Shown here piece by piece: positions 5,055-32,047 of a stretch of 64,000 bases of DNA. The notes beneath the pieces are model-generated. The model made no database searches and was not told the DNA's origin. It worked only from the letters and a program-made list of their open reading frames with translations. Source of the stretch: Candidatus Kaiserbacteria bacterium (GTDB lineage: Bacteria > Patescibacteriota > Minisyncoccia > Phycocordibacterales > UBA2100); contig JACPLD010000001.1 in assembly GCA_016186765.1 (NCBI GenBank), positions 133,647 through 197,646 on the forward strand. The letters are read 5' to 3'. Both the position numbers and the translations under genes were made by a program. Positions within the stretch are counted from its first letter, which is position 1, and each line of letters opens with the position of its first letter.

Positions 5055-5113
5055 GCCTTATTCTACCGCGGGATTCGGACGAGAATTTCGAGAATGTTGA
5101 AAACCCCTAGCTC

Positions 5114-6536: not shown

Positions 6537-6788
6537 TCAGAGAAGTACAACAGCGCGATTGCTGGAAAATTCCAGCACGCCGCTCTCAATGGGAAAATCC
6601 TTCGGCTCCTCCGTTAATTCACGGACTCGGATGGTTCCCTTCTTGAGCGTTGTCACCAGCGGTTCGTGGTGCGCAAGTACGGTCAGCTCGCCATCAGAGC
6701 CGGGAAAAGTGGCCGACACCGCCGGACCGTCGAAACGCGTTTCCCCGATGCTTGCGATGACAAGATGAAAAGTATTCGCTCCGCTCAT
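6537..6788 (-). CDS. atpC: F0F1 ATP synthase subunit epsilon (short form, N-terminal beta-sandwich only)
   Basis: 83 aa MSGANTFHLVIASIGETRFDGPAVSATFPGSDGELTVLAHHEPLVTTLKKGTIRV; lies immediately downstream of atpD. Confidence 0.8.
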   Translation of the reverse strand: MSGANTFHLVIASIGETRFDGPAVSATFPGSDGELTVLAHHEPLVTTLKKGTIRVRELTEEPKDFPIESGVLEFSSNRAVVLL

Positions 6789-6794
6789 ACTTAG

Positions 6795-8626
<1,832 letters not shown>

Positions 8627-8630
<4 letters not shown>

Positions 8631-9226
8631 AGAAATTCTGCTATGAGGATCTCTCTTGCTTTTGCGAGCGCTCGGCCGCGATGGCTATAGCGATTCTTTT
8701 CCTCGACGGACATTTCTCCGCCGGTTTTGCCAGCTTCATCGTAGAGAAAAATCGGATCGTAACCGAACGATCGCTCGCCTCTCGGTTCACGTGTGATGTG
8801 GCCATATACTTCTTCGCGGCACGTTTTTAGATCTCCCCTCGCTGGATCGTAGATAGCGATCACCGTAACGAATCGCGCCGTTCTCTTTTCATCAGGAACA
8901 TCCTTCATCGCATCAAGCAGCTTTCTGTTTCTGTCGGCATCAGTGCCCGGTACGTACCGAGCGCTCTGTATGCCGGGAGCGCCGTCGAGCGCATCCACTT
9001 CGAGCCCCGAATCGTCGGCAAGCGTGAGCATACCAGCCTTCGTTCCGTATTCTCTCGCCTTGATGACCGAGTTTTCCTTGAATGTCGCGCCTGCTTCCTC
9101 CGGTTCGAATCCTTCAAGCTCCGGTACATGGTTGATGTCAATGACGTTGAACGGAACCCCTTCAAACGCATGGCGTATCTCCGGCATCTTTCCCTCGTTC
9201 CGAGTCGCGATAAGTAATTCTCTCAT
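8627..9226 (-). CDS. rdgB: non-canonical purine NTP pyrophosphatase (dITP/XTP pyrophosphatase, RdgB/HAM1 family)
   Basis: 199 aa MRELLIATRNEGKMPEIRHAF...ADDSGLEVDALDGAPGIQSARY, characteristic of the Ham1/RdgB family. Confidence 0.85.
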
Positions 9227-9227
9227 G

Positions 9228-9253
9228 CCCTAGTGGCTATACCCTAGTGGCTA
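9228..9253. repeat. CTAG-rich direct-repeat element (ccctagtggctata x2) between the atpG stop and the rdgB start
   Basis: ccctagtggctataccctagtggcta. The same module recurs at 12275..12299 and, inverted, at 22051..22113. Confidence 0.7.
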
Positions 9254-9257
9254 ACGA

Positions 9258-10172
9258 CTATTTCATCGCCTCAATGCCAGAAGTGATCTCGGAAACTTCG
9301 CGAGTAATCGCGGCCTGGCGGGCTTTGTTGAAGGTGCGCGTGAGCTCCCCGGCCATTTCTTTCGCCTTGTCGGTCGCGTTCTTCATCGCGACCATGCGCG
9401 CGCTATGTTCGGATGCTTTTGATTCGAGCATCTTGTGGAATATGGCGATGTTAACCAGGCGCGGCACGAGAGCCGCCAAGACCTCGTCGGCATCCGGCTC
9501 GATCGTGTATACCGCTACCCCATTGCCATTTTCAACCTCGGCATACTTGCCACGCACCGGGAGGATCTCCTCGACCATGTGCTCCACAGCTCTTCGCGAG
9601 AGCGGCAGCACTTTGTGCACGGCTGGATGCTGTTCGAAAATTGATCGGAAATTTGTATAGGCGACGCGTACTTCGCGGACGCCTCCTGCTCGATACAGAG
9701 AAATCGCTTGGTCCGTGATTACGCGGAATTCGCGCTCGTCAATGGCATCAGCAATGTTCGTGTGAAAATGCACCACGTTGTATCCGCTACGGAGCGCAAA
9801 TTCGTATCCACGCTTCCCGAGACAAAGAAAAATGAGATCATCGCGTGAAAGATTCTCTTCTTTGATGAACTTCTCGGTTTCTCGGATGACGGCACTGTTG
9901 AGGGCGCCAGCAAGTCCTTTATCACTCGTGATGATGATGATCACTACCTTGCCCTCCGCAGGCACGTGCATTAAGGAGTGCCGTGCGACGTTCGTGCTGC
10001 CGGAGATACCGGCGAGCACCCGCAGTCCTGCACGGGCATATGGCCTGGAGGAAATGGCACGCTCTTGGCTCTTGCGCATCTTCACGGCGGATACCGCCTC
10101 CATGGCATGCGTGACCGTACCAGTCTTTTTGTATGACTGGATCTTCAGCTTAATGTTCTTTAAACTCGCCAT
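9258..10172 (-). CDS. atpG: F0F1 ATP synthase subunit gamma
   Basis: 304 aa MASLKNIKLKIQSYKKTGTVTHAMEAVSAVKMRKSQERA..., typical gamma N-terminus; conserved operon position. Confidence 0.9.
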   Translation of the reverse strand: MASLKNIKLKIQSYKKTGTVTHAMEAVSAVKMRKSQERAISSRPYARAGLRVLAGISGSTNVARHSLMHVPAEGKVVIIIITSDKGLAGALNSAVIRETEKFIKEENLSRDDLIFLCLGKRGYEFALRSGYNVVHFHTNIADAIDEREFRVITDQAISLYRAGGVREVRVAYTNFRSIFEQHPAVHKVLPLSRRAVEHMVEEILPVRGKYAEVENGNGVAVYTIEPDADEVLAALVPRLVNIAIFHKMLESKASEHSARMVAMKNATDKAKEMAGELTRTFNKARQAAITREVSEITSGIEAMK

Positions 10173-10175
10173 GAC

Positions 10176-11744
10176 TTATTTTTTCTCAAACAATTCCGGA
10201 TGCGCGAGCTTGAACTCTTCGATCTGTTTGTTCAGCTGTTTCTTAGTATCATCGGGGAGGTCTCCCGTCTTCTTGATTTCAGCGAGCACTTCGGAGCACT
10301 CGGCATCGAAGAATTCTGTGAGCTTTGCTTCGACGGCCGTGACACTCACGACGGGAACATCGGCAAAAAGCTTCTGCCCGGCTGCGTAGAGTATCGCGAC
10401 TTGCATCTCCATTGGGATTGGCGCGCCGTTCTTTTGTTTCAGCACTTCCACCATGCGCTGCCCCGAGGCTATTGCGTCGGCGGTGGCCTTGTCGAGATCC
10501 TGCGCAAACTGCATGAAGGCTTCCAGCTCGCGAAATTGCGCGAGTTCGAGCTTCAGGCCTCCGGCAACAGCCTTCATCGCCTTACGCTGAGCGGCTGACC
10601 CCACGCGCGAGACCGAAATGCCGACGTCTATTGCGGGCCTCACACCTTTGTTGAACAGCTCAGAAACGAGAAATATCTGACCGTCGGTGATGGAAATGAC
10701 GTTGGTCGGGATGTAGCCGGTGACGTCACCATCCTGCGTCTCGACAATTGGAAGCGCTGTGAGGCTCCCTCCACCCTTCTCTTTGGAAAGACACGCGGCG
10801 CGCTCAAGGAGCCGCGAGTGAAGGTAGAAAATGTCGCCGGGATACGCCTCGCGGCCCGGCGGCCGGCGCAAAAGGAGCGAGAGCTGCCGGTACGCGACGG
10901 CCTGCTTCGAGAGATCGTCGTATACGACGACGACATCCTTGCCCTTATCCATGAAATATTCGCCCATCGCAACGCCGGCGTATGGAGCGAGGTACTGGAG
11001 CGCAGCAGGAGAAGAGGCAGGCGCATCAACGACAATGGTGTATTCGAGTGCGCCGGCCTGACGCAGCTGCTCGACGATACGAGCTGTCTTCGATTCTTTT
11101 TGACCGATAGCAACATAGATGCAGACAGGGCGGGTTGCCTTCGGCTCGTTCCGCTGGCTGACGATGGTATCGATTGCGATAGTCGTTTTGCCCGTGCTTC
11201 GGTCGCCAATGATGAGCTCACGCTGTCCACGACCGATCGGGATCATTGCGTCGATCGCTTTGATGCCTGTTTGCACGGGCACCGAGACCGATCGGCGGTC
11301 AATGACACCCTTAGCTTCTCGCTCGACGGGCATGAGTGTCGTTTTTTTGAAGGGACCCTTGCCGTCGATCGGCTCGCCCAAGGCGTTCACGACGCGGCCC
11401 AAGAGCTCTTCGCCCGCAGACACCGAGAGAACGCGACCTGTGGATTTGACGGTCATGCCTTCCGTCACTCGAGCGGTGTCGCCGAGGACCGCGACGCGCA
11501 CCCCATCCTCTTCAAGATTGAGAATGAGGCCGTAGAGTTCTGTCTGTGCTTTCATCGCTTCCGAAAGTGGCTTCCCCTTTCCCTCTTCGAAAAGTACGAC
11601 CTCGCTCATCACTGCTTTCGAAAGTCCGTCGATCGCAACAACGCCGTCTCCGACGGCGGTGACCCGCCCGACGTGTTCGGCACGAGTGCTCGGCGCATGC
11701 GCCTCGATTTCTTTGAGTATCTTGTCAACGGTAGTACTGCTCAT
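10176..11744 (-). CDS. atpA: F0F1 ATP synthase subunit alpha
   Basis: 522 aa; Walker [16 protein letters not shown]; strong alpha-subunit conservation throughout. Confidence 0.95.
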
Positions 11745-11747
11745 ACC

Positions 11748-12212
11748 CTATTCAGTCGCACGATTATACCCCGACGCTTCGGTCGGGGCCCCGACTTCCG
11801 ATTGAACATCGGAACGTCGGGGTATCGAATTTGTAACTTTGTTATAAATCTCCAGCAAGCTTTTCTTATAACTCGCATCGACGAGACGCTCGCGGCCTTC
11901 CAAGCGCCAACCGCCAATGAGCGAATCGTCGACACGCATCTCCATGTCTTTCGCACTCGTGCCGAGCTCTTTGAGAATATCTCTTGCCTCACGCTCTGCA
12001 TTTTCGATATCCTTATGCCGCGCAACCGAGAGCACAACAGCTCTCTTCGCGCTCTCCCGCGCCGCGACGCGCATGAGAGCGTGGGCAATCTTAGGCAGAA
12101 GGTTCGCCCGACCGTGCCTCTCCAGATACGCTCGCAACTTCGCGACAGCCGCCTTCGGCTGCTCCCCAGCTTCTATCATCTTCCAAAGCGCTTCTGCGTA
12201 CGCATTCTCCAT
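11748..12212 (-). CDS. atpH: F0F1 ATP synthase subunit delta (OSCP)
   Basis: 154 aa; C-terminal ...DDSLIGGWRLEGRERLVDASYK resembles the delta C-terminal domain; sits between atpF and atpA. Confidence 0.75.
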   Translation of the reverse strand: MENAYAEALWKMIEAGEQPKAAVAKLRAYLERHGRANLLPKIAHALMRVAARESAKRAVVLSVARHKDIENAEREARDILKELGTSAKDMEMRVDDSLIGGWRLEGRERLVDASYKKSLLEIYNKVTNSIPRRSDVQSEVGAPTEASGYNRATE

Positions 12213-12303
12213 AAGTGATTAGCCAATAGGGTTTAGGGTATAGGGTTTTTGAATTTGGTTTTTTGATTTCATATCTAGTGGCTATACCCTAGTGGCTAGA
12301 CCC
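12213..12303. repeat. composite CTAG-rich repeat module upstream of atpH (tagggtttagggtataggg + ctagtggctataccctagtggctag)
   Basis: Shares the ctagtggctataccctagtggcta unit with 9228..9253 and the tagggtatagggtttaggg unit with 22051..22113. The 3' copy overlaps the last codons of atpF. Confidence 0.7.
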
Positions 12304-12738
12304 TCGTAATATTCTCTCTGCCGCGAGCATTGCCGCACGAGCTATTTCCCGCTCACTCTCCTTCAGGGCCTGGCGCTTAGCTTCTTCGGCACGCAGCGCC
12401 GCGTCTTTGAGCGTGCTTGAAGCTCGCGATTCGGCTTCTCTCACAATCTCTTCGGCCTTCTCTTCAGCACGGCTTCGCGCAGCCGCGACGATTCCTTCAG
12501 CCTCTCGAGACGCGCTGCCGATAATCCCCTCCCCTTTCGTTTTTGCTTCAGCAAGTCGCCCTGCCGCAGCTTCTGCGTTCTGCACGCCCTCGGCAATTTT
12601 CTTCCTGCGATCGTCGATCATCTTCAAAACAGGTTCATAGAGAAAGTACCATAGGACTGCAAGCAGAATGCCGAAGTTGAACGCCTGCACCAAGAGCAGT
12701 TTCCAGTTGATGCCAAACGCTGCGAACAACTCGCTCAT
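12289..12738 (-). CDS. atpF: F0F1 ATP synthase subunit b
   Basis: 149 aa; N-terminal TM helix (LLLVQAFNFGILLAVLWYFLY) followed by a long charged coiled-coil rich in A/E/R. Confidence 0.75.
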   Translation of the reverse strand: MSELFAAFGINWKLLLVQAFNFGILLAVLWYFLYEPVLKMIDDRRKKIAEGVQNAEAAAGRLAEAKTKGEGIIGSASREAEGIVAAARSRAEEKAEEIVREAESRASSTLKDAALRAEEAKRQALKESEREIARAAMLAAERILRGSSH

Positions 12739-12762
12739 GCCACGACGAAAAAGTTCACCGCT

Positions 12763-13026
<264 letters not shown>

Positions 13027-13119
13027 TCACTTCTGCTAATTAATAACAAATATGGTCGCATTCTAACATGCGTTTTCAGAAATTCTACGGCTTGACAACT
13101 AGGGATAAAAAGTATGTAG

Positions 13120-13488
13120 TTGTCGCACGAAGCACACGGCTTCGAGCACATTGGAGGATTCGTCATGCCCAAATGCGCATGTACACTTAATGTTCCTGAA
13201 CCTATCGCCCGTCGCTACATGAGTACGCACGACGGGAACTGGCCTTTCGACAGCGAGTGGGCGTTGTTTAAAGCGCGGCTCACATTCGCCTCTGAGCCGG
13301 TGGAGGGCCGAAAGCTGCAGTTCGGTGACGTCATCCACACTGTGACGTTGCAAATCGACGAGGTCTTCTACCATGGTACGCATGAGCGCGTGGAGACTAC
13401 GGTCTACCTCAGCATCGCGCCAACGCCCGTAGAGGTCCAACACGTTGGCGAGTTTATCGACGAGCTGCGACAACACGGCTGGAGGTGA
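13120..13488 (+). CDS. hypothetical protein encoded on the opposite strand inside the atp operon (between atpB and atpE)
   Basis: 122-aa plus-strand ORF with coding-like codon usage; an alternative start is MSTHDGNW. Preceded by TTGACA at 13092 and followed by a weak hairpin+T-run at 13519..13548. A competing minus-strand ORF 13099..13476 is judged less coding-like. Confidence 0.4.
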   Translation: MSHEAHGFEHIGGFVMPKCACTLNVPEPIARRYMSTHDGNWPFDSEWALFKARLTFASEPVEGRKLQFGDVIHTVTLQIDEVFYHGTHERVETTVYLSIAPTPVEVQHVGEFIDELRQHGWR

Positions 13489-13518
13489 AATTTTAGGACG
13501 CTGTTTCTATTAGGGTCT

Positions 13519-13548
13519 GCCGGCGCCATAAGTCCGGCTTTTTCTTTT
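13519..13548 (+). terminator. weak intrinsic terminator candidate after the 13120..13488 ORF
   Basis: gccgg-cgccataagt-ccggc stem (5 bp) followed by tttttctttt. Confidence 0.3.
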
Positions 13549-13626
13549 AATCCGCTTTCGTGCCCAGATTATACGTTCACGAGGGCTGTCCTAATACTCG
13601 TACCATGGTACGAAAACTATGACAGG

Positions 13627-14367
13627 TTAATGCGCCTCGGCACCATGCGGCTCGGAAACGGCGAGCTTGATAAAAAAGAGCGTAAGTAGGGCAAAGATAG
13701 CCGCCTGCAAAAAGCCGATGAAGATTTCAAACAGCATAAGTGGGACAGGCCCGAGATAGGGCGCGAAGAAAATCGCGACCGCGATGATAACCTCCCCAGC
13801 AAGGATATTGCCAAAGAGCCGGAACGCGAGCGAGAACGCTCGCGCAAATTCTCCGATGAATTCGACGATGCCGACAAAAAATCCGATAAAGCTGCGTATA
13901 TCAAAAAATTTCTTGAAATACTGCCATGTGCCTATCACCGCAATACCTGTTATCTCGATAACGAAGAACGAGATGATGGCGAGCGTTAAGGGAACGGTGA
14001 GGTCCGTCGAGGGAGCACGAAGGAGCGGTTCATCCATATACTCAATGGAGCCGATGCCGGGCAGAAAGTGAATCATATTGCCAACAAAGACAAAGAGGAA
14101 AATGGTCATGAGAAGCGGAAAAAATCGCTTCGCCATTTCTCTGCTCTCGAGCACCTCGGCCACATAGTCGTATACAAATGAAAACGCTTCTTCAAGAAGC
14201 GTCTGCAAACGGCCTGATACCATCTCGAGCCTTCCGCGAACGAAGAGGGCGAGGCTGACGAGCAGTGCGATCACGATCCAAGTCGTCACAAGCGTATTCG
14301 TTATGGGTATACCAAACAATTCGCCAAGCTTTTCAGCCGCGATCGCGACGTGTATTCCCTCCTCCAT
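13627..14367 (-). CDS. atpB: F0F1 ATP synthase subunit a
   Basis: 246 aa polytopic membrane protein with the conserved AFRLFGNILAGE motif (essential Arg). Confidence 0.9.
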   Translation of the reverse strand: MEEGIHVAIAAEKLGELFGIPITNTLVTTWIVIALLVSLALFVRGRLEMVSGRLQTLLEEAFSFVYDYVAEVLESREMAKRFFPLLMTIFLFVFVGNMIHFLPGIGSIEYMDEPLLRAPSTDLTVPLTLAIISFFVIEITGIAVIGTWQYFKKFFDIRSFIGFFVGIVEFIGEFARAFSLAFRLFGNILAGEVIIAVAIFFAPYLGPVPLMLFEIFIGFLQAAIFALLTLFFIKLAVSEPHGAEAH

Positions 14368-14388
14368 TGATGGCTAGTCTAGCACGAT

Positions 14389-15273
14389 TTACCGAGCAAT
14401 AAAGCGCCGAATAGCGCGAGCAACATCTCGCTCATAGCCCTTGAATCCATGCCGCGCACCGGCAATTACCATTGCGCGGAAATCGCGCGAGCGATTGTTT
14501 ACCTCGAACCACTTCACGATCTCTTTTGCTGGCCGATCGCCGAATTCATCGCGTCCTGCGAGCAACACGAGAGCCGGCAGGCGAACAGACTTTAGTACTC
14601 TAGGATTTCTCTTCGGATCCCAATAGGTAAATATTTCTTCAGGACCACGTCCTGAGTATAGACTCATGAATCGTTGTGCATCCGCGATCCATGGCCATCC
14701 CCATACACTCGGAGGAAGCAATTCTTTCGCGCGACCGCGTCGCAATGCTCTGCGCGCGTACGTGAGTGCACGAGCAACCTTTTTCTTGTCGTACTCGAGT
14801 CGAAGCGCTGCGTAATCACTGACGGGACCCAGAAGAACGAGGCCTCGCACACCTCTGCCCTTCTTATGAGCCCAAAAGACGGATTTCTGGCAACCGGTCG
14901 AATGGCCGGCAACATAGATTTCCTTCGCGCCCTGCCTGCGCGCAAAGTTGACTGCCCCTTGAATGTCATCGACGCAATCAGTAAAGCGCTCGTGTGCGGC
15001 ACCCGCGCGCAACGCGCGCCGATATACATGGCTCTTATGCGGGAGATACGTGACTTTGTCATGCCCTCTATTATTAAAAGCAAGGACTGCGGTTTTGTTA
15101 TCAACCGATTGCTTTGCTATCTTCAGCTTGCTGAACATGGAACTTCCGAGTCCATGCACCCAAACAATGCACCGTTTGGACCTTTTTGGGCCTAGCCAAA
15201 GACCGTTCAGCAAATATTTTTTCGGCGTGACTATCTCAACGACATGAGCCGGCGTCATGTTCCCTCTTGCCAT
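14389..15273 (-). CDS. alpha/beta hydrolase fold protein
   Basis: 294 aa; GHSTG nucleophile elbow (GxSxG) with upstream HG oxyanion-hole motif (VWVHGLGSS). Confidence 0.7.
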   Translation of the reverse strand: MARGNMTPAHVVEIVTPKKYLLNGLWLGPKRSKRCIVWVHGLGSSMFSKLKIAKQSVDNKTAVLAFNNRGHDKVTYLPHKSHVYRRALRAGAAHERFTDCVDDIQGAVNFARRQGAKEIYVAGHSTGCQKSVFWAHKKGRGVRGLVLLGPVSDYAALRLEYDKKKVARALTYARRALRRGRAKELLPPSVWGWPWIADAQRFMSLYSGRGPEEIFTYWDPKRNPRVLKSVRLPALVLLAGRDEFGDRPAKEIVKWFEVNNRSRDFRAMVIAGARHGFKGYERDVARAIRRFIAR

Positions 15274-16523
15274 GAGCTCAAATATTTTTTTTGTTCAGGT
15301 GAAAGTTTGTCGATTTCTATGCCCATCGAGGCAAGCTTGAGGGAGGCAACAGTTTCCTCGATTTCATCGGAGACGTCGTACACTCCTGATGTCAAGGTGT
15401 CACCTTGACGCACCAGCCACTCGACAGCGAGTGCTTGCGTTGAAAAACTCATGTCCATCACACTCGCCGGATGCCCTTCGGCCGCCGCGAGGTTTACGAG
15501 CCGACCTTCCGAAAGAAGATACACTTTCTTATTTCCTATGCGGTATTCGTCGACGTTCTCACGAATCCGCTTCGGCTTCCCTCCCAGCTTCTCAAGGTCC
15601 TTGAGGCTCACCTCAACATCGAAGTGTCCCGCATTACAGACAAAAGCACCGTCTTTCATCTTCTTGAAGTGTTCGCCGCGAATGACATTGATGTTGCCAG
15701 TGACCGTACAGAAAAGGTCGCCGAAGGGCGCGGCTTCCTCCATCGTGAGCACACGAAAACCGTCCATCGCCGCTTCGAGCGCTTTCACGGCATCAACCTC
15801 GGTGATGATAACGTTTGCACCCATTCCACGTGAGCGCATCGCAAGGCCTTTTCCGCACCAGCCGTAGCCTGCGATCACAAACGTGCGGCCCGCGACGAGC
15901 ATATCGGTCGCGCGGATAATTGCTTCGAGCGTCGATTGGCCGGTGCCATAGCGATTGTCGAAAAGATTTTTCGTCTTTGCGTCGTTCACCGCGACAACGG
16001 GAATTTTGAGTGCTCCGTCGCGCTGCATCGCGCGAAGACGGATAACGCCTGTCGTCGTCTCCTCGGTCGAGCCGATCATCTGCGAAAGGAGCTTCGGATG
16101 GTTCTTATGTATCGTCGAGACTAGATCCGCGCCGTCGTCCATGGTGATGTCCGGCTTCGTCGCAATAACGGCCTCGATATGCTTGAAAAAAGTCTTGCGA
16201 TCTTCCCCAGAAATAGCAAAAACGGGGATTCCGTGCTCGACAAGTCCCGCTGCGGCCTCGTCTTGCGAAGAGAGCGGATTCGATGCACAGAGCGCGACAG
16301 ATGCGCCACCTTCTTTCAGCGTAACCATGAGATTCGCCGTCTCGACGGTCACATGCAGACATGCTCCCACTCGCTTCCCCTTGAGCGGCTTCTCTTTCCG
16401 AAATCGTTCCCGGATCTTCAGCAAAACAGGCATATCCCGCGCCGCCCACTCAATGAGCTGCGCCCCTTCTTTGGCTAGCTTCCTGTCTTTTATGTCGTAT
16501 CGCACGGAGGCAGTATACCCCAT
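15255..16523 (-). CDS. ahcY: adenosylhomocysteinase (S-adenosyl-L-homocysteine hydrolase)
   Basis: 422 aa, conserved along its length (LHVTVETANLMVTLKEGGA..., NAD-binding region GYGWCGKGLA). Confidence 0.95.
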   Translation of the reverse strand: MGYTASVRYDIKDRKLAKEGAQLIEWAARDMPVLLKIRERFRKEKPLKGKRVGACLHVTVETANLMVTLKEGGASVALCASNPLSSQDEAAAGLVEHGIPVFAISGEDRKTFFKHIEAVIATKPDITMDDGADLVSTIHKNHPKLLSQMIGSTEETTTGVIRLRAMQRDGALKIPVVAVNDAKTKNLFDNRYGTGQSTLEAIIRATDMLVAGRTFVIAGYGWCGKGLAMRSRGMGANVIITEVDAVKALEAAMDGFRVLTMEEAAPFGDLFCTVTGNINVIRGEHFKKMKDGAFVCNAGHFDVEVSLKDLEKLGGKPKRIRENVDEYRIGNKKVYLLSEGRLVNLAAAEGHPASVMDMSFSTQALAVEWLVRQGDTLTSGVYDVSDEIEETVASLKLASMGIEIDKLSPEQKKYLSSWQEGT

Positions 16524-16562
16524 TAGATTGCGAGCGGATAGCTCGATCTAACGGGGCAGGCA

Positions 16563-17501
16563 CTAAAGCGGACAATTTTCTCCGTAGGTTTCTTGGTAGC
16601 GTTCTCGCAATTCTGGAAGCGTGAATTGATGATTCTGCGTCCCCTGCTGCTCGACAGCATAGGCGGCGACAGCGCTGCCAATCTGCGCACATATGCGCGG
16701 TGATTGCCCCGAAAGATATCCCGCGATGAATCCCGCGCGAAACGCATCTCCTGCGCCCGTTGGGTCGATCACCTGCTCTACGGCAGCGGCCTTCACGCGC
16801 ACGCTTGAGTCTTTACTCATGATGCGTGAGCCGCTTTCTCCAAGAGTCACGACGACAAGAGCCGCCCGCGCGAGAAGCTCTTTCTCATTCCATCCCGTCT
16901 TTTGCATGATGAGATCGATCTCATAGTCGTTCCCAAAAAGTCCCGCCGATCCATCTATTGCACTTTGCAAATCGTCTGCAGAAAGGATGGGTATCTCTTG
17001 CGCAGGATCGTAAAAGTACGGAAGTCCGCGGGATTTGTAGTGAAGGGGAAGGGCGCGCATGTCGTCCGGATTTCCAGCACCGATGATAGCGCATAACGCA
17101 CTTTCAGTTTCTGGCAACGTTTTGTAGGCAGCTCTTCCGGCTCCAAAGGAAAACGCAGCTATCTGATTGTCTGCCTTGTCGGTAATGATGTATGCAGAAG
17201 AGGTGAGTTCGCTCGGATCGACGTGAATCAGCTCCGTTGCAATGTCCTGCTTCTCTAAATAGGCGCGGTAGGCTCCAAAATCAGAGCCGGCCGTCGAGAT
17301 AATAGACGGTTCATGTCCGAGGAGCTTGAGATTGTATGCGATGTTACCCGCAGTTCCGCCAAAGTTTTCCTCAACACCCTCAACCGCAAAGCTCACGTTG
17401 ATAGTATGTAATTTGTGGGCCAAAAAGTGATCGCGAAAATGTCCCGGAAAATCCATGATCCTGTCGTAGGCGATCGAGCCAGAGACAATGACACGTGACA
17501 T
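16563..17501 (-). CDS. PfkB-family carbohydrate/nucleoside kinase (likely adenosine kinase, given the ahcY context)
   Basis: 312 aa; ribokinase-family motifs GGTAGN and DPTGAGDAF; the adenosine-kinase role is inferred from adjacency to ahcY. Confidence 0.8.
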   Translation of the reverse strand: MSRVIVSGSIAYDRIMDFPGHFRDHFLAHKLHTINVSFAVEGVEENFGGTAGNIAYNLKLLGHEPSIISTAGSDFGAYRAYLEKQDIATELIHVDPSELTSSAYIITDKADNQIAAFSFGAGRAAYKTLPETESALCAIIGAGNPDDMRALPLHYKSRGLPYFYDPAQEIPILSADDLQSAIDGSAGLFGNDYEIDLIMQKTGWNEKELLARAALVVVTLGESGSRIMSKDSSVRVKAAAVEQVIDPTGAGDAFRAGFIAGYLSGQSPRICAQIGSAVAAYAVEQQGTQNHQFTLPELRERYQETYGENCPL

Positions 17502-17545
17502 GCTGCAAGTGTATCAGACTGGATCGGCGTGATATCCTCCCGAAC

Positions 17546-18238
17546 ATGCGAAGTACAGAGGAAGAGAACTCGATCCTGGAGCAGTTCCTAACTCCGAGAG
17601 GGTGCCTCTCGTACATCGTCGGAGACCGCGTGAGTGGTGTGGCCGCTATCATCGACCCTTCGATCGAGATAGAGAACGATGCGTATAAGAACTTCTTGCA
17701 GCAGCACGAACTTTCGCTTTCATACATTATCGACACGCATACACACGCCGACCACATCTCTTCGTCGAAAGAGCTGCGTGCGGAGGGCGCGCGTATCGTC
17801 ATGCACACGCTCGCCCCTTCACCGCGCGTCGACCTTCGTGTAAATGATGGCGACACTCTCGCGGTCGGAAGCCTTGAGCTCAAGTTTCTTGCGGCGCCGG
17901 GGCACGCGCCTGACCACGTTTCTCTCTACGTTCCCCAGCTCGAGACGGTGTTCACGGGCGACACTCTCCTCATCGGAGGAACGGGACGTGCCGATTTTTC
18001 TCACAGCGATCCAGCGGCTCTCCATGAAAGCCTGCAAAAGCTCTTGGCATTCCCTGCTGCCACCCGTGTCTATCCGGGCCATGAGTACAAGGGGCGAACA
18101 CGCTCGACTATTGGGCAAGAGCGCGCGAAAAATCCGCGCCTGCAGCTCTCGCGCGAAGAGTTCATCCGCCACATGCGCGAGCATCGGCCACCCCTTCCAG
18201 AACTCTTCGAGGCATCACTCAAGGCAAACAGAGAATAG
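17546..18238 (+). CDS. MBL-fold metallo-hydrolase (glyoxalase II / ETHE1-like)
   Basis: ORF track 17495..18238; start taken at MRSTEEE; HxHxDH motif THTHADHIS plus downstream PGHAPDH. Confidence 0.8.
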   Translation: MRSTEEENSILEQFLTPRGCLSYIVGDRVSGVAAIIDPSIEIENDAYKNFLQQHELSLSYIIDTHTHADHISSSKELRAEGARIVMHTLAPSPRVDLRVNDGDTLAVGSLELKFLAAPGHAPDHVSLYVPQLETVFTGDTLLIGGTGRADFSHSDPAALHESLQKLLAFPAATRVYPGHEYKGRTRSTIGQERAKNPRLQLSREEFIRHMREHRPPLPELFEASLKANRE

Positions 18239-18497
18239 CGCGAAGAAATTCCGAATGTGACCCCTAACGGCCCTGGAAACCCACGGTTTTCCAGCGTGCT
18301 TCGCGCTACCTTCCTCCACGGAGAACTCCCGTTCTCCGACCCTCTCCCATCCGTCGGAGTCATTTCGTTTCGTAAACTCACTCCATGACCCCGACGGAAG
18401 TCGAATCCGTGTTTCCAGGATGAGAACCTGGCGTCCTGGGCCTCTAGACGACGGGGCCAACAACTGTATTCTTCACACTTTTTGAAAGCGGGCAAGC

Positions 18498-18800
18498 TTA
18501 TTCTGTGTCATCAATCTTCTTGAGAGCGTCCGGATGGCAACGGTAGGGTTTCCCTGTTCCATATTGAACGATTACATCCAATCTGACCTCGTCTTTATTA
18601 ACGATGCTCACTTTCCGGTCGAAATTCATAACCTCCTCTCCTATAGAAAAACTTGCAAGTTTCTCCCGCCGCCGGGCTTTTTCGGCTGCTCGATCGGCGA
18701 GCTGCGCCGCCCTCCTTTCTCCACGCTCCTTATCTCGCGCCAACTGCTTGCGTAGATCTTTCTCAATAATGCCCTGACCTCTTTTTGGCTTTTCAATCAT
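18498..18800 (-). CDS. hypothetical protein (charged N-terminal region, small C-terminal beta-rich domain)
   Basis: 100-aa ORF; no recognisable motif. Confidence 0.4.
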   Translation of the reverse strand: MIEKPKRGQGIIEKDLRKQLARDKERGERRAAQLADRAAEKARRREKLASFSIGEEVMNFDRKVSIVNKDEVRLDVIVQYGTGKPYRCHPDALKKIDDTE

Positions 18801-19080
18801 GGTGTGCCGTATGCAATTATCCTACCATTCCGCGCCGACGGATATGTCGATATTGCAAGTACTCCGTTGTCATGTTTTCAAAAGCCACTCGGGTTCCTGG
18901 CGGACGAGCAGATCGACCGCTTTTTCGGGTTCGGCCATGAGTTTCTCTACTGTGCACTCAAAACACTAAGAAAAATCGAAGGGTCTTACATTTTTAAAAA
19001 TATGTGCTAAAGTGCTGTCAGATGGAAAGTGCCAAATCGGAACTTTTTGTTCTCTCTCAACTCCAACATATGAGGTTGTC

Positions 19081-19959
19081 ATGGACGAGCTCAGACGGAT
19101 GTTACGCGCAGAACCGCTTCTGCATACAACACCTACTCTCAAAGCGCTCAATCTCGCTCGAGTCAGTGCGTCAGGCGGTTCAATCTACTACGGTACCGGC
19201 CTCCGCACGAAAACAGCATTGTCAATCGGGCTTCCGTTTGACGTGTTGATACTCGTTCTAGTTGCCGAGTACCTCAGACGCACGCTTGGATTAAAGGATA
19301 TCTACCACCACATCGCGGATACGCACGCGCTTTCGAATTCGTTCTGTACGAAAGAGAGTGTAGATGCAATTTCAGAAGAATACGAAAAATTACTGAAACG
19401 TATCGCTGAAGTAGTCGGGGTTCCACTTATCGTACAGCGATCTTCTTCCTTCGATGCTTCGCCGGAGTATCGGTCGCTTTTGGAAAACGTCCATAGCGAG
19501 AAAGGGGAATACGTCAAACGCGAGATGTCCGATATCCTTTGGTACCGTACCAAGCACAACGTGTCGCTGAAACTCGGTTGGTTGATTGACCCAAGCGCTA
19601 AACGTATGGGCTTTGATGAACGGCTGTTTGATACAGAGTTCCTGTCTCATTGCGACACGAACATGGATTTCGCCTATACGGTCTCCGGCAGGACGTTCGA
19701 CCGAAAACGCTCTCGCGTATCCCCATACGTAGCAGTGCCGGGGGAGACCCGTTTGCTTTTCAAGAAAGGCGAAGACGCGCAATCCAAGTACGAGCAGGGT
19801 CTGAATAACTGGAGTAACATCGAAACCATGGGAAGTGCAATAGGCACTTTGACGGCTGTTATGCACCTTTGGGACCGCGTGTCCCGCACCCACGTTCCGT
19901 CGCATGCAAATCTGATGGACCGCGTGCAGGCAATTATCGATACAGTCTGTAAGGAATAA
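19081..19959 (+). CDS. hypothetical protein in a compositionally distinct (lower-GC) segment
   Basis: ORF track 19012..19959; start taken at MDELRRMLRAE. The region 18800..20030 is visibly more AT-rich than its surroundings. Followed by a strong terminator. Confidence 0.5.
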   Translation: MDELRRMLRAEPLLHTTPTLKALNLARVSASGGSIYYGTGLRTKTALSIGLPFDVLILVLVAEYLRRTLGLKDIYHHIADTHALSNSFCTKESVDAISEEYEKLLKRIAEVVGVPLIVQRSSSFDASPEYRSLLENVHSEKGEYVKREMSDILWYRTKHNVSLKLGWLIDPSAKRMGFDERLFDTEFLSHCDTNMDFAYTVSGRTFDRKRSRVSPYVAVPGETRLLFKKGEDAQSKYEQGLNNWSNIETMGSAIGTLTAVMHLWDRVSRTHVPSHANLMDRVQAIIDTVCKE

Positions 19960-19974
19960 CGTGGGCCCACCTTG

Positions 19975-20012
19975 CTCCGACCGAAAACGAAACGGTCGGA
20001 GTTTTTTTATTT
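19975..20012 (+). terminator. Rho-independent terminator
   Basis: ctccgaccg-aaaacgaaa-cggtcggag perfect 9-bp stem followed by tttttttattt. Confidence 0.75.
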
Positions 20013-20033
20013 GGTATATACTGGTTATTATAT

Positions 20034-20738
20034 ATGGAATCGAAGGTAATTGGCATACTTGGAGGTCTTGGTCCCGAAACTACAGCCCATTTCTACCTCG
20101 ATATAATCTCCTCTCTAAAAGAACAAGGAGTGTTTGCCCGTCCGCCGATCGTAGCTTGGAGCGTACCTCTCCCCTATGCGCTCGAACGAACATTCATAAC
20201 CGAAGGCGGTGGAAAAGACGAATATCTTTCTTTCCTTGTCGATGGCTGTCAAAGAATTGAGCGAGCTGGAGCCGATTTTATCGTTATACCCTGCAACTCG
20301 GTCCACATCTTTATTCAGGAGTTGCGTCAGAGAGTACAGATACCGGTGCTAAGCATTGTCGAAGAAACCAGGGAATTTCTACGTGGTGCGGGACTCGAAA
20401 AAATCGTCCTTCTCGCGACAACCCCAACCATCGAGGGCGACCTCTACCAGACCGTCCTTGAACAAAGCGGTGTGCGGGTAAAGATACCTGATGCCGGCCA
20501 ACAGGCGATTTTGAATCGAGTCATTCAGCGGCTCGCTGCAAGCGAAGCCGATGAAACGGATGCGAAATCATTCCACAATATACTAGAGTCATTTTTGAGG
20601 ACTGGCACTGCAACAATACTTCTGGCCTGCACCGATCTTCAGTTGCTTGCAGAAAAAGAAGCGGAACCGATGCGCGTTTACGACACCATAAATATTTTAG
20701 TTCAAGCTACAGTGAGAAAATGGAACAACGTACACTAA
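20034..20738 (+). CDS. aspartate/glutamate racemase family protein
   Basis: 234 aa MESKVIGILGGLGPETTAHFY...IVIPCNSVH...LLACTDL; the two conserved Cys regions of Asp/Glu racemases. Confidence 0.8.
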   Translation: MESKVIGILGGLGPETTAHFYLDIISSLKEQGVFARPPIVAWSVPLPYALERTFITEGGGKDEYLSFLVDGCQRIERAGADFIVIPCNSVHIFIQELRQRVQIPVLSIVEETREFLRGAGLEKIVLLATTPTIEGDLYQTVLEQSGVRVKIPDAGQQAILNRVIQRLAASEADETDAKSFHNILESFLRTGTATILLACTDLQLLAEKEAEPMRVYDTINILVQATVRKWNNVH

Positions 20739-20740
20739 AA

Positions 20741-22036
20741 CTATCTCTTTTTCCATTCATCATCCTGGCGCACCAAGAGCTCAGGGGCGCGCTCCGGTTC
20801 GGCCATGAGTTTCTCCACCGAACGCTCCATGCGCATGGATTGCGAGCCCTTCACGAGAACGATGTCGCCGTCGCGAAGTTCGCCCCGCAACTCTTGTCCC
20901 GCGCGCCGCGATTCATTCTGTTCGTACTCTTTGATGTTTGCTTCTGGCATGCTAGCGTCGAGCGCCGCCTCTCCTGTCGCGCGCGAGCGAAAACCGACGG
21001 TGATGAGTCTCTCTGCGCACTGTGCAGTGCGTACTCCCACCTGCCTGTGCGCCTCGGTTGCAAACCTACCGAGCTCGAGCATGTCGCCCAAAACAGCGAT
21101 GCGCCGCCCGCCTTCCGGAATTTTGACTTCTTTGAGTGTATCGAGCGCCGAGAGCGCCGCCGCCGGGGAGGAGTTGTACGTGTCGTCGATGATAGTCGAG
21201 CCATTCACGCCCCTGATCACGCGCATCCTCCCCGGCGGCGGGCTCCACTGCGAGAGCGCCTGCCGCAACTGCGCCGCGTCGATGCCTGCGACGTCAGCTA
21301 CCGCAAAAGCGGCAAGTGCCCCGTAGGTATGGGCCTTTCCGAGCGCACCGACAATGGAGACCGGAAGTGCAAGATTGCCGCTTACAAGCCGAAAGCGCGT
21401 ACCGATGGGCTTCCCCTTTTCGTACAGAATACCCTGATGCGAAGCTGAGTACGTATTGTGTTTTCCGAGTCCGTACGTTGCAACATTTTTGAATCCGGCG
21501 GACATATCGATCGTCCGGGAATCATCCCCGTTCACAATCACCCTGCCGCTTTCTTTCACGTGTTCGGCGAGCGCGCGCTTCTCTCGCGCGAGCTCGAGGG
21601 GCGTGCGGAAAAATTCCACATGCACGGGAATATCCGGTACGCCCGTGATAACGGCGATATCGGGCTTCAGCCACCTTGCGACACGCCTGATGTCGCCGGG
21701 ACGATCAGCGCCGACTTCGACGACGAGCCACAGGGGATACGGCGTCTTTCGAACAACGAGCATAAGTCCGCGCGCGAGATTCAGGGCCCACATAAGGGGG
21801 TTCCGCCACGCGTTCTCCAGACCGAGGATGGTGAGTGGAACGCCGATATCGCTGTTGAAACTCTTCTCGCTTTTGCGGACATGCAAAGCGCTCGAAAGCG
21901 CTGCGTATATCGCATCCTTCGTCGTAGTCTTTCCGACACTGCCGGTAACGGCGATTATCTTCGGCTGATAGCGCCACAGGACAAGCTTAGCTTCTAGAGT
22001 AAGGGTGACCACTATCAGTTTTTTGATCGTTTGCAT
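20741..22036 (-). CDS. murF: UDP-N-acetylmuramoyl-tripeptide--D-alanyl-D-alanine ligase
   Basis: 431 aa; Mur ligase ATP-binding motif GSVGKTTTKD; sits in the dcw-cluster position after ftsI. Confidence 0.85.
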   Translation of the reverse strand: MQTIKKLIVVTLTLEAKLVLWRYQPKIIAVTGSVGKTTTKDAIYAALSSALHVRKSEKSFNSDIGVPLTILGLENAWRNPLMWALNLARGLMLVVRKTPYPLWLVVEVGADRPGDIRRVARWLKPDIAVITGVPDIPVHVEFFRTPLELAREKRALAEHVKESGRVIVNGDDSRTIDMSAGFKNVATYGLGKHNTYSASHQGILYEKGKPIGTRFRLVSGNLALPVSIVGALGKAHTYGALAAFAVADVAGIDAAQLRQALSQWSPPPGRMRVIRGVNGSTIIDDTYNSSPAAALSALDTLKEVKIPEGGRRIAVLGDMLELGRFATEAHRQVGVRTAQCAERLITVGFRSRATGEAALDASMPEANIKEYEQNESRRAGQELRGELRDGDIVLVKGSQSMRMERSVEKLMAEPERAPELLVRQDDEWKKR

Positions 22037-22050
22037 GGCGAAGTGGACGA

Positions 22051-22113
22051 GCCACTAGCCACTAGGGTATAGGGTTTAGGGAATTTCACTAGTGGCTATC
22101 CCCTATTAGCTAG
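22051..22113. repeat. composite CTAG-rich repeat module upstream of murF (inverted and direct copies of the ctagtggcta / tagggtataggg units)
   Basis: gccactagccactagggtatagggtttagggaatttcactagtggctatcccctattagctag, between the ftsI stop (22117) and the murF start (22036). Confidence 0.7.
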
Positions 22114-22116
22114 TTC

Positions 22117-23829
22117 CTATCTATCGGGCGGGATATCGTAGTAGTTAATCAAAAACTTCGTAATGTCGAGAAACGGCCGCGCGAGCGTTGCCGAGGCGAA
22201 TTGAGCGCCGTGCGGTTCGACCGCTACAAGAAAGACAATAAACTGTGGATCATGCGCGGGGAAATAACCGAAGAACGAGTGCAGGTAGCGATCTTTGTAG
22301 TAGCCTCCTCCGCCTGGAATTGCTATCTGGGCCGTCCCGGTCTTTGCGGCGATCGAGTAGTGCTCTTGCTTGAGGACCCCTCCCAGAAGCGCAGTATCAA
22401 ATACCTTCACCAGCATGTCGGTCACCGTCTGAACCGTCTCCTCCTTCAGTACACGTGGCCCTTGCGGCGGGAGGATGCTTCGAACAATGCCGCTCTCGAG
22501 CTTAATATCGGAGACGACATGCGGTGATGGCAGCACTCCATCATTTGCCAAGGCACTAAGCGCGCGGATCATCTCGACGCCGGTCACTGCGATCCCCTGT
22601 CCGAAGGAAGCCGAAGCAAAGTCGACGTCGTAGGCTCGATCGAGACTTTTCACTAGCCCCGTCGCCTCATTAGGAAGATCGATGCCGGTTTTTTCACCGA
22701 GGCCGAAGGCATGAACGTATTCGCGAAACACATTATGACCGACCCGCCCCTCGATGAACGAGGCACCAAGGTTCAACGATTGATTCAACACCTCTTGCAT
22801 GTCGACGACCCCGCGCGCTTTGCCGTCATAGTTGCATATCTCCTTCCCGCTCTTTTGAATGCAGCCGCGGTCCTCATAGGTCGTCTTCGGCCTTATCGCA
22901 CCTACATCCAAGCCAGCGGCAATGGTGAGAGGCTTCATGATTGAGCCCATCTCGTAGACATTTTCGACCAACGGGTTCCCGAACATGGAGACCTCGGTGG
23001 TGTTGTAGGTGTTAGGATCGAAGCCCGGCCGCGCCGCGATCGCGATGATCTCACCGGTGTGAGGGTCCATGATGATCCCGCCCCCGATCTTCGGCGTATA
23101 GGTGCTCATCACCGCCTCGAGTGTCTTCTCGAGACGCGCCTGCACCTGTGGCTCGATGGAGGTAATGACATTCCCATAGCTCTCGGCGGGGTCGGAAAGC
23201 GCCGTTCCGACATTGATGAAGATCTCCGCGAATGGATTGACGTACAAACCCGAGGCTGCCTTCGCAAGAGTTTTTTCGTAGCTTCGCTCAAGCCCGTACC
23301 TGCCGACCTTCTCGTCGCCCCGATACCCAACGAAGCCGATCGCATGCGCCGCAAGCACACCTCCCGGATAGTTGCGCCACTTATCTTGAACGAGGATCAC
23401 GCCCAGAAGCTTGAGCGAGCGGATACGCTGTGCAGTATCGTCCGGAAGTCGAAAGGCTACCTCTTCATACGGGTCATCATACTTGCTGGCACTCGCAAAA
23501 AAGCGCTCGCGATCAGGTACGGCGAACGAGAGCGTCTGGTAGGCAGCTTCGGGATCTTCAAGCTCCTTCGGCACGATAGCGAGGCGCCATCCACTCTGCA
23601 TCAGCGCCGCTGCAACGAGATCGCCATCGCGCTTCGTAAAGAATATGGAGCCGCGGTCCTCGACGTCGCGTACGTCGGCGACGTACTGGCCGCGAGCGTC
23701 TAGCTCATATCGATCGCCGTGCACGATTTGCACGAAATACAGCCGCGCCGCAAGGAATGCCGCGGCGAGGATGAAGAGGGCGGAAAGGACTCTCGCTCGC
23801 TCGACAAAGCCGAGACTCTTAAATTTCAT
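22117..23829 (-). CDS. ftsI: penicillin-binding protein (FtsI-type transpeptidase)
   Basis: ORF track 22117..23985; start taken at MKFKSLGF (membrane anchor) so that it overlaps the ftsL stop by 11 nt. SxxK (GSIMKP) and KTG (AAKTGTAQ) motifs. Confidence 0.85.
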   Translation of the reverse strand: MKFKSLGFVERARVLSALFILAAAFLAARLYFVQIVHGDRYELDARGQYVADVRDVEDRGSIFFTKRDGDLVAAALMQSGWRLAIVPKELEDPEAAYQTLSFAVPDRERFFASASKYDDPYEEVAFRLPDDTAQRIRSLKLLGVILVQDKWRNYPGGVLAAHAIGFVGYRGDEKVGRYGLERSYEKTLAKAASGLYVNPFAEIFINVGTALSDPAESYGNVITSIEPQVQARLEKTLEAVMSTYTPKIGGGIIMDPHTGEIIAIAARPGFDPNTYNTTEVSMFGNPLVENVYEMGSIMKPLTIAAGLDVGAIRPKTTYEDRGCIQKSGKEICNYDGKARGVVDMQEVLNQSLNLGASFIEGRVGHNVFREYVHAFGLGEKTGIDLPNEATGLVKSLDRAYDVDFASASFGQGIAVTGVEMIRALSALANDGVLPSPHVVSDIKLESGIVRSILPPQGPRVLKEETVQTVTDMLVKVFDTALLGGVLKQEHYSIAAKTGTAQIAIPGGGGYYKDRYLHSFFGYFPAHDPQFIVFLVAVEPHGAQFASATLARPFLDITKFLINYYDIPPDR

Positions 23830-24250
23830 TGAGCTCAACGTCGGCGTTTGCAGTATCTGCCTCAGCGGGCCCGCCTGCGGAGAGGGTCCCCGGACGGTGA
23901 ATGTAGAGCGTCCGAGCGACGGGAGAGAGGCCAAGGCGCACGCCATCCTCGGGTCCGATGCCCTGTGAGAGAGCGAAGTATTCACGCTCGAGTTTTGAAA
24001 CGGCAGTCACGAGATGAGCCGACTCCGCAAGCGCTTCTTTTCTCGCGATGACGTTCAAGATCGTCGAACCGACAAAATACACGTAGGAGAACGCGAGGAG
24101 TACTACAGCGCCGATGAGTACGCGAAAGAGCAAATGCTCCGCGGGATGTTCGGAGGTAAGCGAAAACGCTCGATGCCTACCGGCAAAATCAAGCCTCCCC
24201 TGAAATATCGAGGGAGCGTACTTGCTTATTTTTTGTATTTTGGCTCTCAT
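23819..24250 (-). CDS. ftsL: FtsL-like cell-division protein (small bitopic membrane protein)
   Basis: 143 aa; single TM (LLFRVLIGAVVLLAFSYVYFV); position between rsmH and ftsI. Confidence 0.5.
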   Translation of the reverse strand: MRAKIQKISKYAPSIFQGRLDFAGRHRAFSLTSEHPAEHLLFRVLIGAVVLLAFSYVYFVGSTILNVIARKEALAESAHLVTAVSKLEREYFALSQGIGPEDGVRLGLSPVARTLYIHRPGTLSAGGPAEADTANADVELNEI

Positions 24251-24253
24251 GCG

Positions 24254-24330
24254 AAGAAGTTGGATGTTAGAAGTTGGAAGTTTGATATTTCCAACCTCTA
24301 ATCTCTAACTCCTAACTTCTCAATCACACG
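24254..24330. repeat. AT-rich imperfect palindrome / AGTTAG direct repeats in the rsmH-ftsL junction
   Basis: gaagaagttggatgttagaagttggaa gtttgatatt tccaacctctaatctctaactcctaacttctc; the right half overlaps the rsmH 3' end. Confidence 0.4.
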
Positions 24331-30657: not shown

Positions 30658-30676
30658 CTCAAATCCACTTATTTAT

Positions 30677-31885: not shown

Positions 31886-31890
31886 GCTGC

Positions 31891-32045: not shown

Positions 32046-32047
32046 GA

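Follow-up and report, generated by a model that had tools for sequence, protein, structure and literature searches.

A family of five-unit, seven-nucleotide repeats at gene boundaries in Parcubacteria, seen from the ATP synthase and cell-wall gene clusters of a Candidatus Kaiserbacteria genome

Cyanobacterial STRR heptamers are a class of intergenic heptamer repeats comparable to the elements that we describe here in a 64,000-nucleotide stretch of DNA, henceforth the window, from Candidatus Kaiserbacteria bacterium (assembly GCA_016186765.1, contig JACPLD010000001.1, positions 133,647 to 197,646). These elements are arrays of 7-nucleotide (nt) units of the form (T/N)AG+NNNN, read on the TAG-starting strand, at the boundaries of protein-coding genes, and they had been noticed in an earlier reading of the window (the original prediction) as CTAG-rich direct repeats placed on the start codons of rdgB, atpH, atpE, atpB and murF. 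The closest phenomenon on record is the TAACTGA heptamer, which forms direct repeats in the intergenic DNA of Beggiatoaceae, Cyanobacteria and Bacteroidetes (MacGregor 2015, PMC4679880). Both consist of 7-nt units in tandem that keep to spacers and carry stop codons in all three frames, so that they overlap only the extremities of open reading frames (ORFs), and both often lie a few nt upstream of starts that lack a Shine-Dalgarno (SD) motif and have a wide, patchy distribution (PMC4679880). The TAACTGA repeat, however, is one exact heptamer in 2-43 copies, mostly in a single orientation to the start codon (PMC4679880), whereas here only (T/N)AG is constant, the units form a block of five with a position-specific consensus, the blocks face each other as inverted pairs with their TAG ends at the genes, and the host lineage is another. 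The TAACTGA repeats thus lack the block of five units, the design with a variable core and the architecture of facing arms.

The reading of triplet repeats has a precedent in TRAP, with its (G/U)AG repeats, second to that of HutP. The HutP sites on the hut mRNA of Bacillus subtilis are (UAGNNNN)3 blocks flanking a terminator (PMC2425495). The likeness is close: HutP reads NAG triplets at fixed spacing on single-stranded RNA with the identical 7-nt period, and it recognises A and G specifically while tolerating X in place of U, as in the outermost heptad here, which is often XAG (PMC2425495). The triplets that HutP requires, at least three at 4-nt spacers, are present with five per arm, and its triplet blocks flank the stem of an intrinsic terminator; of the two-arm elements described here, only 22% enclose a strong hairpin. 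In contrast, HutP uses two same-strand blocks of three in one operon, whereas here there is one block of five whose partner is inverted (CUA in the same RNA), elements number tens or more per genome, and the spacer bases are conserved (SSWH). TIGR arrays, which belong to the Tas RNA-guided systems and occur in some Parcubacteria, consist of 36-nt units with edge and loop repeats and two 8-9-nt spacers (PMC12045711). They too are short periodic repeats with constant and variable parts in bacteria of the candidate phyla radiation (CPR) (PMC12045711), and were rejected as candidates: they form a single tandem direct array beside a tas gene, hold no heptads and are not scattered at gene boundaries.

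Taking as an array at least three TAG triplets at period 7, with both strands scanned, we found eight arrays in the window, where 300 dinucleotide shuffles gave 0.07 on average and never more than 1. Typical runs of units read TAGCCAC TAGGGTA TAGCCAC, TAGGGTT TAGGGTA, or TAGGTTC TAGGGAC. The anatomy of the family was counted in 0.9 Mb, made up of the 64-kb window and of loci from other genomes taken as 8-kb pieces, where a scan of TAG periods gave 309 arrays at period 7 and at most 10 at each of periods 3-6 and 8-11. Runs of two TAG were at chance level (229), and the lengths of longer runs were not geometrically distributed, with 75 runs of three units, 96 of four, 130 of five and only 7 of six. 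A heptad of the form XAG precedes 54 of the 96 four-unit runs and 5 of 129 five-unit runs. Together with the run-length profile, this shows the arm to be a discrete module that spans 35 nt in five (T/N)AG+NNNN units, and all window arms have five units once XAG is allowed (GAGGGTC+4, AAGTGAT+4, GAGCCAC+4). From the outer to the inner end the consensus is NAGnnnn TAGCCAC TAGGGTA TAG(CCAC/GGTT/CCAA/GGTA) TAG(G/T)(G/A)AA, in short form TAG-SSWH with TAG-KRAA at the end, and A-rich sequence follows the inner end. The general heptad is TAG-SS-W-H; about 5-6% of heptads have G before their TAG, a position that reads H.

A minor family of CAG heptads is likewise built of five units and does not supply a stop codon in each of the three frames. 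Perfect tandem expansions of a single heptad occur occasionally, as (CTAGAAG)4, (CCCTAAA)6, (TAGTCGT)8 and (CAGTAAC)11, at L046:4146-4211, L036, L026:4290-4466 and L065; (CTAGAAG)4 lies before atpF, and the plant-telomere-like (CCCTAAA)6 before an ATG. These expansions suggest replication slippage superposed on the five-unit design. A G-quadruplex was rejected by inspection, since the TAGGG runs of the window have just three G-triplets and heptads of the TAGCCAC type none. In a search against Rfam, tRNAs alone reached the gathering threshold and no match fell on the elements even at E up to 5.

The repeats reported in the original prediction are all present where it placed them, and its gene names agree with Pfam (Ham1/rdgB, atpG, atpH, atpF, atpE, atpB, Mur ligase and penicillin-binding protein, PBP). 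The rarity of CTAG that it took for granted holds for the window, where the 51 copies compare with 243 predicted by base composition and 83 by a Markov model, as does the clustering, with 18 of the 51 in the 5.3 kb (8%) of intergenic DNA. The unit CTAGTGGCTA has exactly six copies in the 64 kb, within three spacers (at 9230, 9244, 12275, 12289, 22056 on the minus strand, and 22089), and TAGGGTWTAGGG has four against 0.07 expected. Two units described as one recurring sequence, at 12219 and 22063, are indeed related; they are permuted versions of each other rather than identical. Five sites had been listed, one of which (14373..14383) does not belong: it reads CTAG-T-CTAG with 5-nt spacing, and no heptad array was detected there. 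Arrays are in fact present at seven intergenic spots.

The 17-mer TAGCCACTAGGGTATAG, common to three window loci, was searched for in one genome per bacterial or archaeal species. At least 117 stretches contain it, in about 55 assemblies that are nearly all metagenome-assembled genomes (MAGs) of Parcubacteria type, whose labels include Kaiserbacteria, Nomurabacteria, Colwellbacteria, Harrisonbacteria, Uhrbacteria, Paceibacterota, Minisyncoccia and 'Patescibacteria group'. These 17-mer-bearing stretches (L002-L118) form the set of loci used throughout, and among the matches listed some genomes had 7-14 loci each. Four matches in ordinary bacteria stand without heptads around them and seem to be of the chance kind that a 17-mer is expected to give. 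Viral contigs gave only three matches, and the one inspected (L119) showed a single short array. The elements are members of a lineage-wide family of gene-boundary repeats in Parcubacteria/Paceibacteria, within the CPR. A prior description was not found in the literature searched, which was queried by exact motifs and for repeats of Patescibacteria or Parcubacteria with incomplete coverage, so that absence is unproven. Two groups of contigs deserve separate mention. Seven contigs of one AT-rich MAG, CAZVCF01, labelled Gammaproteobacteria (among them L024, L033, L081, L087, L090 and L101), carry the 17-mer beside a second, GC-rich repeated hairpin, ccgccagaggcggatccgcctctggcgg, and represent either a mislabelled MAG or a different composite repeat. 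A Nomurabacteria MAG (L083) and a 'Collierbacteria' MAG (L104) have identical sequence around the element, which suggests a shared or mis-binned contig.

Nearly all arrays are intergenic (296/309, 96%). The TAG end of an arm lies against a protein-coding gene, or a few codons inside it, and the arm reads into the spacer. This polarity is strong in pairs, with 76 facing pairs within 150 nt and 3 back-to-back, and holds among solo arms, which have their TAG end at the gene in 44 cases and their inner end in 9. The neighbour of the polar end is a gene end 113 times and a gene start 96 times, so that the proposed placement on start codons is not supported, and in 99 of 175 cases the upstream gene takes its stop codon from one of the first three TAG of the array; in the window this is so for atpG, atpF, the PBP gene and rsmH. 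Arrays are found in 25% of co-directional, 20% of convergent and 16% of divergent spacers. Within 13 nt of tRNA gene boundaries we counted an array in 2 of 100, a small sample to be set beside an ORF calling that inflates adjacency to protein genes. Facing arms are 1-112 nt apart; a heptad register running across this spacer, apparent at 12220-12305, was discarded, since the distance modulo 7 is uniform over the 76 pairs. The sequence between arms is unique at each locus, even within one genome (the LJ_bin-1780 loci). In 17 of the 76 two-arm elements (22%) it holds a strong hairpin, specific to the locus and with AAATACAAA and TTTGTATTT on its flanks, that is a bidirectional intrinsic terminator, and the remaining two-arm elements have short A/T-rich spacers. 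Nearly all of the 31 co-directional two-arm elements fold by arm-arm pairing.

We compared the atp cluster with those of two relatives, L022, a Kaiserbacteria MAG whose ATP synthase proteins are 55-81% identical to those of the window, and L046, with 73-99% identity. The latter carries, like several third-party annotation (TPA) MAGs, a 'Candidatus Saccharibacteria' label that is not reliable, in view of this identity and since the window and L046 are both nearest to Kaiserbacteria. Between the window and L046, the atpF-side arm of the atpF-atpH element is identical at 33/35 positions and the atpH-side arm at 27/28 (94-96%; P about 1e-7), compared with 42-59% identity at 4-fold degenerate sites of atpE, atpF and atpG (synonymous sites about 53%) and with 18/25 in the atpF-atpH spacer, below the arms. 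In the array upstream of atpE, 19/20 positions of the CTAG cores and 8/15 of the variable bases are identical. L022 has a TAG array with different variable bases at the atpF-atpH junction and a canonical two-arm element at atpD-atpC, and an arm directly upstream of the yebC start codon is present in three genomes. These sequence comparisons show the arms to be under purifying selection. At the same time there is turnover: the atpG-rdgB array exists in the window and not in L046, with no evident target-site duplication in this one presence/absence pair, (CTAGAAG)4 precedes atpF only in L046, and the atpE array is absent from L022. Since the repeats are non-random, mutually related, tied to gene boundaries and kept at orthologous spacers (atpF-atpH, atpD-atpC and upstream of yebC), the condition that the original prediction set for its own refutation does not hold, and its interpretation is partly supported.

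How the genes of these organisms are started bears on what the elements may do. SD-like motifs precede 6 of 72 window genes (8%, against a background of 12.5%) and 10.8% of the 956 genes of all loci (background 11.5%). A TANNNT box starting exactly at -12 precedes 112 of 618 ATG genes (18%), often as TGnTAGAAT, TAGGAT or TAGACT, and this sharp peak is a signature of leaderless mRNAs in Parcubacteria.

Our favoured reading is that the elements are gene-boundary punctuation, probably read on RNA as NAG triplets 7 nt apart in the manner of HutP; we give it a probability of roughly 40%. The reading draws on the invariant (T/N)AG at period 7, the five units, the TAG end at the gene, the flanking of terminators and the purifying selection. 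The element would act on RNA that leaves a gene, as a transcript exiting a gene body on either strand would first carry (UAGNNNN)5. Because 7 equals 1 modulo 3, such a block has a stop codon in every frame, and these stops would release ribosomes, while the five NAG triplets, at HutP spacing, could form a platform for a putative oligomeric reader. Where the partner arm is transcribed as well, the two would pair in an interrupted stem enclosing the terminator; within operons, this stem would bring the upstream stop codon beside the downstream start and favour coupling without an SD motif. The net role would be control of termination and read-through together with translational coupling, in genomes poor in SD motifs and rich in leaderless mRNAs. 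A wider claim, which we consider doubtful, is that this is an undescribed genome-wide punctuation code in which an oligomeric protein or the ribosome reads five NAG triplets on RNAs leaving protein-coding genes.

Several observations weigh against reading on RNA and hold our estimate where it is. There is no sense-strand bias, co-directional spacers being UAG-sense-only in 28 cases and CUA-sense-only in 23, and divergent spacers, which contain promoters, carry arrays nearly as often as the other classes do (16% vs 20-25%). Folding gives little help: antisense RNA folds more stably than sense RNA, by 3 kcal/mol on average, and the z-scores of the window folds are only -1 to -2.4. Decayed heptads read TGG (16), TAT (11), CAG (8), TAA (8) and TGA (2), with no preference for the other stops; as there are also CAG-type five-unit arms without three-frame stops, a pure three-frame-stop function was rejected and stop codons cannot be the whole story. 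Furthermore, about 20% of arm-bearing genes look leaderless, so that their upstream arm would be outside their own mRNA. Approximate HutP and TRAP queries searched with tblastn gave no match below E = 0.7 in the window and 118 loci, which cover a few percent of each genome, and no reader is known. Finally, for bacteria at large no selection in favour of additional downstream stop codons is reported (PMC6764699).

Rather unlikely, in our view, is that the element is a selfish or domesticated mobile repeat, similar to REP/REPIN elements or to miniature inverted-repeat transposable elements (MITEs), with arms that are the ends recognised by a lineage-conserved transposase or recombinase, built-in stops that make insertion at gene ends tolerable, and a host function that is incidental. 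Repetitive extragenic palindromes (REPs) lie near stop codons and are associated with termination or mRNA stability, and MITEs such as Neisseria Correia and ERIC elements are about 80-120 bp long, with terminal inverted repeats of about 26-35 bp, lie in spacers, are co-transcribed and form long hairpins. The facing arms of about 35 nt resemble such terminal repeats in their fixed length. Arrays are gained and lost between close relatives, as at atpG-rdgB and before atpF; solo arms are many beside the inverted doublets; all spacer classes have arrays, promoter regions included; arms overlap gene 3' ends; and perfect tandem expansions such as (TAGTCGT)8, (CCCTAAA)6 and (CAGTAAC)11 occur. MITE copies, however, share their interior, whereas here the sequence between arms is unique at every locus, gene-specific terminator hairpins included, which means that whole units are not being copied, and the arms are built of heptads; at the one clean gain no target-site duplication is evident. 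Genomes whose ATP synthase proteins share just 55-80% identity retain the same 17-mer, and at orthologous spacers the conservation of arms far exceeds that of synonymous sites.

REP, BIME and REPIN elements are extragenic palindromes tagged with GTAG or CGTC and mobilised by RAYT transposases. The elements described here resemble them in being short, abundant and intergenic, with inverted doublets able to form hairpins and many singletons (PMC3733652). They differ in that the arm is a direct array of five heptads instead of a GC-rich palindrome, with pairing between arms and not within, and in having no GTAG or CGTC head, G preceding TAG in only about 5-6% of heptads. In addition, the doublet spacer varies in length (1-112 nt) and sequence despite the 76 to 3 polarity, promoter-containing spacers are not avoided, and conservation reaches far wider across the phylogeny. 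In the sequence sampled, which is the 64 kb of this genome and the 8-kb pieces of others rather than whole genomes, no transposase and no RAYT gene were identified. A selfish repeat of this kind would still be unusual for its heptads, its own stop codons and its very wide phylogenetic conservation.

We think it unlikely that the arrays are sites on double-stranded DNA, bound by a nucleoid-associated or roadblock protein and serving as boundary, insulator or chromosome organiser. Their symmetry with respect to gene orientation and spacer class would fit such a role, as would the size of the arm, a discrete 35-bp module comparable to a footprint, the conservation of positions other than TAG (SS-W-H), and the arms upstream of apparently leaderless starts, which would lie outside the mRNA of that gene. 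Against it, a repeat of 7 bp does not keep phase with the DNA helix, two arms keep no fixed spacing or register, arms are tightly tied to reading frames and to actual stop codons, arrays are scarce, in small numbers, at tRNA gene boundaries, and no candidate protein is known.

The functions suggested in the original prediction, namely operators of one regulator of atp and cell-wall genes, internal promoters, or substitutes for SD motifs at particular starts, have become very unlikely. RNA processing, or some function connected with translation, is still conceivable. They took their plausibility from the window, where the arrays do cluster in the atp and dcw/mur gene clusters, 0-14 nt from start codons, with the atpE array probably in a 5' leader, and from the Beggiatoaceae, whose TAACTGA repeats have been proposed to act on translation beside SD-less starts (PMC4679880). 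A regulator of atp and mur genes is hard to reconcile with the presence of the same arms beside unrelated genes in about 50 other genomes, and a role at starts with arms that adjoin gene ends as often as starts and stand in both orientations directly upstream of ATG codons. As to internal promoters, a scan of 9000-24500 for sigma-70 promoter and intrinsic-terminator consensus found no site at the elements, with counts at or below the shuffle level, and genes that have an arm upstream carry the -12 TANNNT box (13/66) no more often than genes overall. The want of room for an SD spacer had been taken as a trait of the genes concerned; since SD motifs are unenriched genome-wide, it is true of essentially every gene. 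On these comparisons, the elements are not strict REPs, classical MITEs, TIGR arrays or an atp/mur regulon. An origin by chance in low-complexity sequence, or as an artefact of assembly, has nothing in its favour beyond the shortness of the individual repeats; it is refuted by the eight window arrays against 0.07 expected, by the 309 arrays at period 7 against at most 10 at others, by the identity of the murF element in an independent assembly and by the elements of dozens of independent MAGs.

In the window, the minus-strand ATP synthase cluster runs atpB, an unknown ORF, atpE, atpF, atpH, atpA, atpG, rdgB, a NUDIX gene, atpD and atpC. The solo arm between atpG and rdgB (9226..9260, minus strand) reads TAGTCGT TAGCCAC TAGGGTA TAGCCAC TAGGGCA; its first TAG is the atpG stop codon and its final base the A of the rdgB ATG, and at the orthologous junction of L046, where the arm is missing, the spacer is 3 nt. 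The element between atpF and atpH has two arms. The atpF-side arm (12271..12305, minus strand), GAGGGTC TAGCCAC TAGGGTA TAGCCAC TAGATAT, codes for the last atpF codons and the stop (TAG at 12289-12291); an A-rich spacer or loop follows (12248..12270, minus strand, the GAAATCAAAAAACCAAATTCAAAAA region); and the atpH-side arm (12213..12247, plus strand), AAGTGAT TAGCCAA TAGGGTT TAGGGTA TAGGGTT, appears in the gene sense as CCCTAnn heptads ending 7 nt before the atpH ATG. In the fold, the two arms pair as 6+6+3 bp. Upstream of atpE, an array of CTAG type (12996..13030; CTAGGTT CTAGGGA CTAGGTT CTAG...) has TAG heptads on both strands because CTAG is palindromic, and ends 5-7 nt before the atpE ATG. 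A candidate -10 of the atpE promoter, TGtTAGAAT (13060..13068, minus strand), is TGtTAAAAT in a conserved block of L046 and, if used, would put the array in a leader of about 55 nt. A site that had gone unlisted, between atpD and atpC, holds a CAG-type variant (6792..6872) with five NAG heptads on each strand, AAG/CAGx4 at 6838-6872 (minus) and TAG CAG CAG CAG TAG at 6792-6826 (plus), in two mutually complementary arms without stop codons in all three frames. The non-member near atpB (14373..14383, minus strand) reads TGcTAGACT in the gene sense, resembles an extended -10, lies 8 nt upstream of the atpB ATG and is not conserved in L046.

The dcw-type cluster runs rsmH, an ftsL-like ORF, PBP and a murF-like ligase. 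In the element between the last two, which is identical in an independent Logan assembly (L001), the PBP-side arm (22085..22119, minus strand), TAGGAAC TAGCTAA TAGGGGA TAGCCAC TAGTGAA, has the PBP stop codon as its first TAG and faces, across 1 nt, the murF-side arm (22049..22083, plus strand), GAGCCAC TAGCCAC TAGGGTA TAGGGTT TAGGGAA, which stops about 12 nt short of the murF ATG. Also absent from the earlier list is a degenerate element at 24255..24314 (minus strand), where rsmH borders on the ftsL-like ORF; it consists of TAGGAGT TAGAGAT TAGAGGT TGGAAAT, a short loop and an inverted partner; its third TAG is the rsmH stop codon and it ends at the ATG of the small ftsL-like ORF.

Some features of the window stand apart from the repeats. 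The atpB-atpE spacer (12991-13626) is 636 nt long, compared with 107 nt in L046 and 70 nt in L022, has a 40-nt palindrome right after atpB (13586-13625) and holds overlapping ORFs at 13099-13476 (minus) and 13120-13488 (plus) without a Pfam match; in sequence it looks like an insertion within the atp operon. Two further genes, rdgB (Ham1) and one for a NUDIX hydrolase, lie inside the ATP synthase cluster between atpG and atpD-atpC (6537-10172); atpG is followed by rdgB in L046 as well, and by two small ORFs in L022. Internal tandem repeats of 15 and 9 nt (GTAGTCATCGTACCA-type and TGCCGCCCG-type) occur in minus-strand ORFs at 56068-56508, 1189-1890 and 49266-49961, whose predicted products are of low complexity and rich in Tyr/Asp/Trp or in Gly. 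Minus-strand tRNA genes lie in a cluster at 31815-32193 and at 30676-30747 and 29503-29575, with adjacent near-duplicates (31975-32119) that are 82% identical. Large ORFs of 579, 454, 315 and 322 amino acids (3315-6478, 19012-19959, 27592-28560) had no Pfam match at E up to 0.001-0.01, and large ORFs of this kind are typical of CPR genomes.

The CPR/Patescibacteria make up a large share of bacterial diversity, and to our knowledge almost nothing is known of how their transcription and translation are organised. A punctuation code of the kind set out above, were it to exist, would govern termination, read-through and re-initiation, and would scale the HutP/TRAP-like principle from one operon to a global system, a prospect that we regard as improbable for now. 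The 35-nt signal could be used to seek its reader by phylogenetic profiling, may aid the prediction of gene starts and ends in MAGs, and is a possible lineage marker in metagenomes. Together with its SD-less and leaderless context, it offers a testable entry into gene expression in Parcubacteria.

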